This document shows positions 1,968 to 4,342 of a stretch of DNA of 4,342 bases, in pieces; within the stretch, counting starts at the first letter, position 1, and every line of letters begins with the position of its first letter. The notes beneath the pieces are model-generated. The model did not search any database and was not told the DNA's origin. It saw nothing but the letters and a program-made list of their open reading frames with translations. Made by a program: the position numbers and the translations under genes. This stretch comes from a virus (lineage: Duplodnaviria > Heunggongvirae > Uroviricota > Caudoviricetes), in IMG/VR virus record IMGVR_UViG_3300005715_000012, positions 1 through 4,342 of that record; one strand, given 5' to 3'.

Positions 1968-2815
1968 TGGCTGATTCGAATCTCAATGAGCCGGTAATCA
2001 CCCAGGCTACGCGGCTCGATACATCAGTCCTTCCACGCAATATTTTCTCGCAGTCATATCTGCTGTACGTTATCGCACAGGGTACTGATGTTGGTAATGT
2101 GGCTAACAAGGCCAACGAGGCCGGACAGGGCGCTTATGACGCACAAGTCAGGAACGATGAGCAGGATGTGATTCTTGTCGATCACGAAATTCGACTGGCA
2201 TCAGCTGAAGCTAAGATTCAGGACCACGAAACAAGGATCACTAACGCAGAAGCGGCGATAGTCGGCCTTGATTCACGATTAACGACAGCAGAAAACGATA
2301 TTGATTACCTGACGGATGAAGTTGTCGCCATTCAAAACACGCTTTCAGACCATGAAACGCGCATCGATGCTCTGGAGTATGCCACTACTCGCAAGAAGTC
2401 AGAGGTTGTTTACTCTGGCGTATCTGTAACCATCCCGACAGCGCCGACTAACCTTGTTAGCCTGCTGAAAACGCTCACGCCGTCATCCGGAACGTTGGCA
2501 CCATTCTTCGACACCGTTAACAACAAGATGGTTGTGTTCAACGAGAATAAAACGCTGTTCTTCAAGTTGTCTATTGTCGGGACGTGGCCCAGCGGAACCG
2601 CCAACAGATCAATGCAACTAACCTTTTCCGGCTCTGTTCCTGACACACTTGTGAGCAGTCGTAATGTGGCGACAACAACCGATAACATCCTGTTAGCTAC
2701 GTTCTTCAGCGTTGATAAAGACGGCTTTCTTGCCACAAATGGCAGCACGTTAACCATTCAGTCAAATGGTGCGGCGTTTACTGCCACAACCATCAAGATA
2801 ATCGCGGAGCAGTAA
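1967..2815 (+). CDS. 26: Tail needle (cell-envelope-penetrating plug), P22 gp26 family, long form with C-terminal knob domain (282 aa)
   Basis: Complete ORF ATG 1967-1969 overlapping the upstream TAA by 1 nt (TAATG); AAGGA at 1955-1959. N-terminus [38 protein letters not shown] matches the gp26 N-terminal hub-binding domain as I recall it. Central region has a coiled-coil character with a thrice-repeated DHE(I/T)R(L/I) motif. C-terminal ~140 aa is Ser/Thr/Val-rich and beta-like, consistent with an Sf6-type knob. The 282-aa length matches my recollection of Sf6 gp9. Confidence 0.85.
2806..2809 (+). promoter_or_regulatory. Shine-Dalgarno for gene 14-position CDS (within the 3' end of the needle gene)
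   Basis: GGAG lies 5 nt upstream of ATG 2815. Confidence 0.55.
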
Positions 2816-3270
2816 TGATTCAGTTCAAACCAACGCGAAACATCGACCTGATCGAAGCAGTCGGAAATCACCCTGACATTATTGCCGGAAGCAACAACGG
2901 TGATGGATACGACTACAAGCCTGAATGCCGTTACTTTGAAGTGAACGTGCACGGGCAGTTCGGCGGCATTGTTTACTATCATGAGATTCAGCCTCTGACA
3001 TTCGATTGCCACGCCATGTACCTGCCAGAGGTTCGTGGATTCAGCAAGGAAATCGGGCTGGCGTTCTGGCGATACATTCTGACTAACACCACCGTTCAGT
3101 GCGTCACATCGTTCGCTGCACGCAAATTTCGCCACGGTCAGATGTACTGCGCAATGATTGGCCTTAAGCGTGTCGGAACCATCAAGAAATACTTTAAAGG
3201 CGTGGATGACGTGACTTTTTACAGCGCCACACGCGAAGAACTAATCGACTTCCTGAATCACGGGAGATAG
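2815..3270 (+). CDS. 14: Protein at the P22 gene 14 position (poorly characterised virion assembly / infectivity protein), 151 aa
   Basis: Complete ORF ATG 2815-2817 overlapping the upstream TAA by 1 nt; GGAG at 2806-2809. Assignment is by synteny only (between needle and gp7-like genes, as in P22 order 4-10-26-14-7-20-16). I do not recall the gp14 sequence, so homology is unverified. Confidence 0.6.
   Translation: MIQFKPTRNIDLIEAVGNHPDIIAGSNNGDGYDYKPECRYFEVNVHGQFGGIVYYHEIQPLTFDCHAMYLPEVRGFSKEIGLAFWRYILTNTTVQCVTSFAARKFRHGQMYCAMIGLKRVGTIKKYFKGVDDVTFYSATREELIDFLNHGR
3262..3266 (+). promoter_or_regulatory. Shine-Dalgarno for gene 7-like CDS
   Basis: GGGAG lies 6 nt upstream of ATG 3273. Confidence 0.6.
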
Positions 3271-3272
3271 CC

Positions 3273-3965
3273 ATGTTATATGCATTTAAGCTGGGCAGAA
3301 AACTGCGCGGCGAGGAACCTTGGTGCCCTGAAAAAGGCGGGAAAGGTGGTAGCTCTGATAAAAGCGCAAAGTATGCAGCAGAAGCCCAGAAGTATGCTGC
3401 AGACCTGCAAAATCAGCAGTGGCAGACGATCATGAAAAACCTTGCTCCGTTCACGCCGCTTGCGGAGCAGTATGTTAACCAGCTTCAGAATCTTTCCAGT
3501 TTAGAAGGTCAGGGGCAGGCACTTAATCAGTATTACAATTCTCAGCAGTATAAAGACCTTGCAGGTCAGGCGCGTTACCAGAGTCTTGCTGCTGCGGAGG
3601 CTACGGGAGGACTTGGTTCGACAGCCACAAGCAATCAACTGGCTACGATCGCGCCGACTCTCGGTCAGTCTTGGTTATCAAACCAGATGAGCAATTACAA
3701 CAATCTGGCAAACGTTGGGCTTGGTGCTCTGCAAGGTCAGGCAAACGCCGGGCAGACGTACGCCAACAACATGAGCAGCATTGCACAGCAAAGCGCAGCT
3801 CTTGCCGCTGCTAATGCCAACAAACCATCAAGTCTTCAGACAGCAATTAGCGGCGGAACGTCCGGTGCGATTGCCGGTGCAGGTCTTGCCAGCCTTTTGG
3901 GAACATCAACACCTTGGGGCGCTGGCATTGGTGCTGGTATCGGATTGCTTGGCTCGTTGTTTTAA
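3273..3965 (+). CDS. 7: Ejection (injection / E) protein, homologue of P22 gp7 (230 aa)
   Basis: Complete ORF ATG 3273 to TAA 3963-3965; GGGAG at 3262-3266. N-terminus MLYAF.LGRKLRGEEP..PEKGGKGGS matches my memory of the P22 gp7 precursor. Has a Q/N/A-rich body and a Gly/Ala/Leu-rich hydrophobic C-terminus. Synteny supports the call. Confidence 0.85.
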   Translation: MLYAFKLGRKLRGEEPWCPEKGGKGGSSDKSAKYAAEAQKYAADLQNQQWQTIMKNLAPFTPLAEQYVNQLQNLSSLEGQGQALNQYYNSQQYKDLAGQARYQSLAAAEATGGLGSTATSNQLATIAPTLGQSWLSNQMSNYNNLANVGLGALQGQANAGQTYANNMSSIAQQSAALAAANANKPSSLQTAISGGTSGAIAGAGLASLLGTSTPWGAGIGAGIGLLGSLF

Positions 3966-3974: not shown

Positions 3975-4342
3975 ATGGCTACTTGGCAAGGATCAAATGG
4001 CGGATTGTTGGCTGGTATCGGCGGCGTCAACTCAAACGCTCCGAGCGTAAATGGCATCGGCAACACGCTTCAGCTTATCAGGCAGAACAATGATATTGAG
4101 CGTTCAGGCGCTAACAATGTTGGGCTGACAGCTTTGCAAGGTCTTTCTGGTATTGCGGGTGTTTTTCAGCAGAAAAAGCAGGCTCAGCGGCAGAAAGAAT
4201 TTCAGCAGGCATACGCTAATGCTTATGCGTCTGGTGATCGCGGTGCTTTGCGTCAGTTGGCTACTCAATATCCAGACCAGATTGAATCTGTTCGTAAAGG
4301 CATGGGATTCATTGATGAAGACCAGCGCACTTCTATCGGCAC
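3975..4342 (+). CDS. 20: Ejection protein, homologue of P22 gp20, 5' partial (first ~122 codons; continues beyond window end)
   Basis: ATG at 3975-3977 preceded by AGGGG at 3965-3969. Frame is open with no stop to the window end (translation MATWQGSNGGLLAGIGGVNSNAPSVNGIGNTLQLIRQNND...). Absent from the ORF track only because it has no stop in the window. Assignment is by position downstream of the gp7-like gene; sequence homology is unverified. Confidence 0.75.
   Translation, partial: MATWQGSNGGLLAGIGGVNSNAPSVNGIGNTLQLIRQNNDIERSGANNVGLTALQGLSGIAGVFQQKKQAQRQKEFQQAYANAYASGDRGALRQLATQYPDQIESVRKGMGFIDEDQRTSIG

Follow-up and report, generated by a model that had tools for sequence, protein, structure and literature searches.

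Positions 2387 to 2812 (plus strand) of the stretch of DNA analysed here (the window, 4,342 nucleotides) almost certainly code for the knob at the C-terminus of a tail needle of the Sf6 type, from a temperate P22-like (Lederbergvirus-type) phage or prophage that inhabits Escherichia or Shigella; the role of this domain would lie in the kinetics of DNA delivery. The needle gene, which is homologous to gene 9 of Sf6 and to gene 26 of P22, comprises 282 codons and a stop (1967 to 2815, +; open reading frame list), and positions 2387 to 2812 correspond exactly to aa 141 to 282 of its product, in agreement with the original prediction of a 282-aa needle with a gp26-like N-terminus and a Ser/Thr-rich, beta-sandwich C-terminal domain. 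The full protein (aa 1 to 282) matches PHROG 1030, "tail needle knob" (E = 1.5e-132), and aa 109 to 282 belong to the Pfam family PF16532 Phage_tail_NK, "Sf6-type phage tail needle knob", with a score of 361 bits (E = 1.1e-108) against a family cutoff of 27 bits and with positions 2 to 175 of the 175 profile positions covered. Furthermore, aa 131 to 282 are identical at 150 of 152 residues to the Sf6 gp9 knob structure (PDB 3RWN, E = 9e-90) and at 151 of 152 to the HS1 knob structure (PDB 4K6B). Judged by this near-identity, aa 141 to 282 are predicted to form a TNF-like jelly-roll (beta-sandwich) knob in place of a P22-type tip.

The window adds no more than one new allele to a very common gene, and needles of this type have already been described, structurally solved and found in hundreds of E. 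coli genomes. The crystal structure of the Sf6 knob dates to 2011, and the primary paper on this knob is that of Bhardwaj et al. The proper label of the gene is "tail needle protein, Sf6-type knob", and the value of the present analysis is little beyond this correct annotation. Mildly new, and incidental, are a shaft cassette exchanged in phase, the tip variants V234 and A270 and the occurrence of knob needles in a wider set of hosts than reported in 2013.

Gene order and genomic context

The genes of the window form one block of P22-like late genes, all pointing the same way on the plus strand, in the order gp4-gp10-needle-gp14-gp7-gp20, in which the needle sits between the gp10 and gp14/gp7 homologues, the position that it has in the P22-like late operon. 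Upstream of the needle we identified a gp4-type head-tail adaptor (tail accessory factor) of 166 aa (48 to 548, +; PF11650 P22_Tail-4, E = 2.5e-58) and a gp10-type tail hub (head closure protein) of 472 aa (549 to 1967, +; PF11134, E = 1e-299), the protein whose channel is plugged by the needle (PMC9728967). Downstream follow a gp14 homologue (DUF2824) of 151 aa (2815 to 3270, +; PF11039, E = 8e-53), a gp7-type ejection protein of 230 aa (3273 to 3965, +; PF25688 P22_gp7, E = 4.6e-134) and the 5' part of a gene for a gp20-type ejection protein (3975 to 4342, +), which leaves the window end after its first 122 codons. The latter has a match, at E about 1e-60, to PHROG 2534/917 ("released from the phage upon host infection"), and its position matches that of Sf6 gene 12. 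The needle gene is coupled to its neighbours on both sides, its ATG overlapping the gp10 stop codon (TAATG) and its stop codon overlapping the gp14 ATG (TAATG).

No Rfam family matched within the window, and promoter-like and terminator-like sites were no commoner in it than in shuffled sequence. Two long open reading frames, 2410 to 2757 (-, 115 aa) and 2758 to 3135 (-, 125 aa), run antisense to the sequences that code for the knob and gp14; they were judged to be spurious chance frames because neither has a PHROG match and both are wholly contained within the sense genes.

The similarity of the window to its relatives changes along its length. In the gp4 gene (positions 1 to 543) nucleotide identity is 93-100% to phage Dewey and to a prophage of E. 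coli EC32, and only about 40-70% to Sf6, HK620 and P22-MSU, whereas from about position 543 (gp10 start) Dewey, EC32, Sf6, HK620 and P22-MSU are all at least 90% identical to the window, so that the mosaic changes abruptly where gp4 meets gp10. Between about 3421 and 4342, in the C-terminal half of gp7 and the beginning of gp20, identity is about 95-100% to Sf6, Dewey and EC32 and goes down to 55-85% for HK620 and P22; this drop thus marks another module boundary within the gp7 gene.

Three modules of the needle

The N-terminal module (aa 1 to 62; 1967 to 2152, +) is the gp26-like virion-binding or plug domain. Its aa 3 to 64 match the P22 gp26 N-terminal fragment 8EAP_B (62 aa; E = 3.8e-27), and over aa 1 to 70 the protein is 97% identical to Sf6, 94-96% to HK620 and Dewey and 79% to P22-MSU gp26, as expected from the gp26-like N-terminus proposed originally. 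In needles of this group the N-terminal domain is the channel plug (PMC3741392, PMC9728967).

Aa 63 to 140 (2153 to 2386, +) form a putative trimeric coiled-coil shaft, recognised by its heptads and by a predicted helix. It contains 11 unbroken heptads, with a/d positions running from N63/Q66 to T140, and one register places hydrophobic residues at 17 of 23 a/d positions, compared with 4 to 10 in the other registers. Eleven heptads are also found in the Sf6 and P22 needles (PMC3741392). The original prediction made no mention of this shaft of roughly 78 aa between the N-terminal domain and the knob.

The third module is the knob proper, the predicted TNF-like jelly-roll domain (aa 141 to 282; 2387 to 2812, +). 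Together with the last two shaft heptads it makes up a conserved stretch (aa 127 to 282; 2345 to 2812, +) that is identical to Sf6 at 154 of 156 residues. Salmonella phage S9-5 and Aeromonas phage 4_4512, whose knob needles are divergent, also conserve these two heptads. Serine and threonine make up 27.5% of aa 141 to 282 versus 13.6% of aa 1 to 140, so the compositional bias noted earlier is real. An AlphaFold2 model, computed from the single sequence as a monomer and of low confidence (mean pLDDT 59.8), has one helix over aa 65 to 140 (pLDDT 75-94 over aa 71 to 130 of the shaft), followed by beta strands over aa 144 to 281. In a Foldseek search with this low-confidence model the best PDB matches were 4K6B and 3RWN (E about 1e-18; TM 0.71 on target), and proteins of the TNF family ranked after them. 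Because the confidence of the model is so low, the fold assignment depends on the near-identity to the crystal structure, and the model is a secondary check.

Needle lengths among the relatives step by whole heptads: 212 aa in P22-MSU, 233 aa in HK620 and Dewey, 282 aa in Sf6 and in the window, 288 aa in S9-5 (seven residues more in the shaft and one fewer in the N-terminus) and 317 aa in Gally and HS1. The gp26 of the P22 strain MSU record, at 212 aa, thus lacks 21 aa (three heptads) relative to PDB 2POH, which has 233 aa.

Mosaic map of the needle gene

The needle of the window and Sf6 gp9 are of equal length and align without gaps, and 39 of their 41 amino acid differences fall within aa 71 to 126. 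This shaft cassette (2176 to 2342, +) has about 50% nucleotide and 34% amino acid identity to Sf6, with length and heptad phase kept, and at the nucleotide level it appears as a dense block of mismatches to Sf6 gene 9 (gene nucleotides 210 to 376) between flanks that are 93-100% identical. Identity to Sf6 is therefore 97% over aa 1 to 70, 34% over aa 71 to 126, 100% over aa 127 to 140 and 99% over aa 141 to 282, and the corresponding values for HK620 and Dewey are 94-96%, 25%, 14% and 11%. The domain identities bear out the mosaic nature of the needle that had been proposed; the part of that proposal which placed the junction at the knob boundary does not hold, as the exchange relative to Sf6 occupies aa 71 to 126. 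On these alignments the mappable exchange is the shaft segment, and it preserves both length and heptad phase.

When the P22-type needles of Dewey and HK620 are used for comparison, DNA similarity ends near positions 2170 to 2190 (aa ~70 to 74), far upstream of the knob. Among 5,426 complete E. coli genomes, no needle with a P22-type tip shared the shaft cassette of the window, all 60 genomes that matched it having knob-type needles; these sequences therefore do not locate the junction of the tip swap. A DHExR[IL] motif marks each end of the cassette (aa 72 to 77 and aa 128 to 133). These motifs may have acted as crossover sites, an idea that nucleotide-level repeats do not support: at the DHETRI motifs the search within the needle gene returned just one 13-nt two-copy match, which lies inside the knob and is probably due to chance.

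The map illustrates a published pattern in which the knob is nearly invariant and the shaft varies in sequence and by whole heptads. Between HS1 and Sf6 the N-terminus is 98% identical, the shaft, with 16 heptads, 67% and the knob 99% (PMC3741392). In the knob of the window the sole differences from Sf6 are V234 and A270. Codon 234 (2666 to 2668) encodes valine in the window, serine in Sf6 and HS1 and alanine in EC32, Gally and S9-5, and codon 270 (2774 to 2776) encodes alanine in the window and HS1, serine in Sf6 and threonine in EC32. It is conceivable, though in our estimation unlikely, that the shaft cassette swap and the residues at positions 234 and 270 reflect selection that tunes needle stability or release and ejection kinetics to each host envelope, and not neutral mosaicism. 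If this were true, needle alleles would contribute, below the level of the tailspike, a subtle second tier of adaptation to the host.

Distribution of knob-type needles and state of the prophage

Matches that cover 80% or more of the needle gene were present in 314 of the 5,426 complete E. coli genomes, and the shaft cassette was present at 94-99% in 60 of them, always in genes annotated as "tail needle knob protein". The best match to the whole window is a P22-like prophage of E. coli EC32, which is collinear with it at 95.7% nucleotide identity, has a needle counterpart annotated "tail needle knob protein" and adjoins a tRNA-Arg gene. The best overall matches among isolated phages were Dewey, IME10, Sf6, phiKp_30 and Gally, with 93-95% identity over the aligned parts.

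A rival reading is that the needle gene belongs to a degraded prophage remnant and has fallen out of use. More than 100 E. coli genomes carry a P22-like remnant of several genes that includes an Sf6-type needle gene (Leavitt et al., PMC3741392), the best matches of the window are chromosomal E. coli prophages and not isolated phages, and an exact copy was absent from the collections scanned: the exact-protein look-up found no record of the 282-aa needle protein, and an exact 36-nt pattern across the V234 codon occurred neither among the viral contigs of IMG/VR nor among the species-representative genomes of GTDB. The state of the genes argues the other way, since all six in the window are intact and of full length (with the gp20-type gene leaving the window end) and their stop and start codons are coupled. 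Moreover, the codon differences from Sf6 are mostly synonymous in the conserved parts of the needle gene (11 synonymous to 2 non-synonymous over aa 1 to 70; 21 to 2 over aa 127 to 282), an excess that is consistent with purifying selection, and the closest relative, in EC32, belongs to a complete-looking prophage that extends from terminase to tailspike and integrase. We regard a disused remnant as improbable.

A survey of 2013 recorded a knob for 69 of 164 P22-like genomes; these 69 came without exception from Escherichia or Shigella, with a divergence of at most 4.9% (PMC3741392). In the collections searched here neither this confinement nor this limit of divergence holds any longer. Knob needles were found in Salmonella phage S9-5 (a Lederbergvirus with S. 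Typhimurium as host; 2363 to 3229 in the retrieved locus), Aeromonas phage 4_4512 (2126 to 2968 in the retrieved locus) and Shewanella phage ZP9 (2096 to 2941 in the retrieved locus), with knobs 77%, 70% and 69% identical, respectively, to that of the window, and all three have a P22-like gene order with the needle gene at the equivalent position. In addition, phage phiKp_30 (LC768498.2), with Klebsiella pneumoniae as its recorded host, carries the gp10 to gp20 block at 95% nucleotide identity, including a "tail needle knob protein". This may be a further sign that the module is not bound to Escherichia and Shigella, or the recorded host may need checking.

The knob, host range and DNA delivery

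In the Sf6 knob, residues that contact three bound L-glutamates and an S-R-N triad that holds a phosphate are described (PMC3741392). By alignment, the knob of the window keeps all six L-glutamate-contact residues (E146, K200, S248, D250, L255 and K277 in Sf6 numbering) and has the distal-tip triad S231-R232-N233 at the same positions as Sf6. The knob is described as a TNF-like trimer of roughly 45 Å with bound glutamate. Position 234, one of the two at which the window differs from Sf6, directly adjoins the phosphate-binding triad at the distal tip.

The knob could be a receptor-binding domain that sets the host range, for example through an outer-membrane protein of Escherichia or Shigella, and its subtype would then predict the host, as the original prediction had suggested. 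The knob sits at the far end of the virion, and the fold class serves receptor binding in the adenovirus fibre knob and in PRD1 P5 (PMC3741392). Furthermore, all 69 knob-type needles known in 2013 came from Escherichia or Shigella phages, and Leavitt et al. left open a specific function of the knob in the infection of Shigella by Sf6 (PMC3741392). Experiments with chimeras speak against such a role, as P22 carrying the Sf6 or HS1 knob, or even a foldon tip, infects Salmonella (PMC3741392); P22 with the Sf6 shaft and knob, or with the HS1 knob alone, gave normal yields and plaques on this host (PMC3741392). The mutations that expand the host range of Sf6 are all in the tailspike, its OmpC-binding region included (PMC9400499), the knob is nearly invariant (99%) among prophages that differ in their other modules, and a knob-type needle is present in Salmonella phage S9-5. 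We thus consider it very unlikely that the knob determines the host, and the proposed use of its subtype as an indicator of host range has to be abandoned. The needle knob is unsuitable for host-range prediction; the informative gene is that of the tailspike, which lies outside the window.

A role of the knob in the kinetics of DNA delivery agrees better with the experimental record, the best evidence being its effect on ejection kinetics (PMC3741392). Release of K+ was slowed in the hybrids with the HS1 knob and with the foldon tip and was near normal in the hybrid with both shaft and knob of Sf6, and Leavitt et al. concluded that the tip is unlikely to act in host specificity and that it influences the kinetics of DNA delivery (PMC3741392).

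From the experiments on P22, Sf6 and HS1 we infer by homology that the product of this allele, too, is a homotrimer that closes the tail channel until infection triggers its release, with the same kinetic role (needle release and plug function: PMC3741392, PMC9728967, PMC9400499). The N-terminal domain (aa 1 to about 62) would insert into the channel of the gp10 hub and plug it, keeping the packaged DNA in. At the outermost tip, the trimeric knob would bind three L-glutamates at its subunit interfaces and a phosphate at its distal end. During adsorption the tailspikes would first work through the O-antigen, after which the needle would meet the surface and be released. Its expulsion would open the channel for the DNA and for the ejection proteins, homologues of gp7, gp20 and gp16 whose genes follow directly downstream, and these proteins, having left the virion, would build a conduit that takes the DNA across the envelope. 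The tip domain would affect the speed of this delivery and not the choice of host.

Comparison with known needles

The label "Sf6/HK620-type" given to the knob in the original prediction stands for Sf6 and fails for HK620. HK620 gene 26 encodes a 233-aa needle that ends in ...GARQTGWTAATGT...LRLHGLID, a P22-type tip, and HK620 is the type of P22-type tip subtype A (Leavitt et al. 2013, PMC3741392). Aa 141 to 282 of the window needle do not have the subtype A sequence (...GARQTGWTAATGT...HGLID). The P22/HK620 gp26 structures (2POH, 3C9I, 5BU5 and 8EAP) align only to the N-terminal 137 to 153 residues of the window needle, with 5BU5, which has the HK620 needle sequence, matching over aa 1 to 153 only and those of P22 gp26 over no more than aa 1 to 137 or 144. 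That the C-terminus is a divergent helical tip of the P22 type and no knob is therefore ruled out, given the P22 gp26 structural alignments ending at aa 144, a best blastp E-value of only 1.4 for aa 141 to 282 against the tips of HK620, Dewey and P22-MSU, the beta strands predicted from aa 144 onwards (low-confidence AlphaFold2 model) and the 361-bit match to PF16532; with neither a full-length alignment to P22 gp26 nor a continuous helix found, the observation of an Sf6-type knob is confirmed.

The 233-aa needle of phage Dewey (CDS0010, 2266 to 2967 in the retrieved locus) is annotated "tail needle knob" although it has no knob, its tip being of the P22/HK620 type (...GARQTGWTAATGT...LHGLID). 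This label is probably an annotation error inherited from a profile that matches the shared N-terminus.

Among the named relatives, the closest is the needle of the E. coli EC32 prophage (WP_105453493.1), which has the same N-terminus, a shaft cassette 96% identical in amino acids and a knob 99% identical, and which differs by a handful of substitutions, e.g. at positions 12-13, 96, 120, 234 (A) and 270 (T); about 60 complete E. coli genomes carry needles of this allele group. The Sf6 gene 9 needle (282 aa; 3RWN) shares with that of the window its length, the three-module plan, the glutamate contacts and the S-R-N triad, as well as its neighbours, gp10 upstream and the gp14, gp7 and gp20 homologues downstream; it differs in the shaft at aa 71 to 126 (34% amino acid identity), in the knob residues 234 and 270, V and A in the window and both serine in Sf6, and in its surroundings, where the upstream gp4 gene of the window (positions 1 to 543) is of another type than Sf6 gene 7. 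The 317-aa needles of HS1 (4K6B) and phage Gally are similar in the knob (99%) and in the N-terminus (96-98%), and HS1 also shares A270 with the window, whereas their shafts are divergent in sequence and longer by 35 aa, with 16 heptads versus 11, that of Gally being 38% identical to the shaft of the window over the aligned part. Finally, the gp26 needles of P22 and HK620 (233 aa; PDB 2POH, 3C9I and 5BU5) resemble the needle of the window in the N-terminal plug domain (79-94% over aa 1 to 70), in the trimeric coiled-coil shaft, in genomic position and presumably in their plug-and-release role, but end in a wholly unrelated helical tip of about 93 aa (residues 141 to 233), where the needle of the window has a predicted TNF-like knob of 142 aa.
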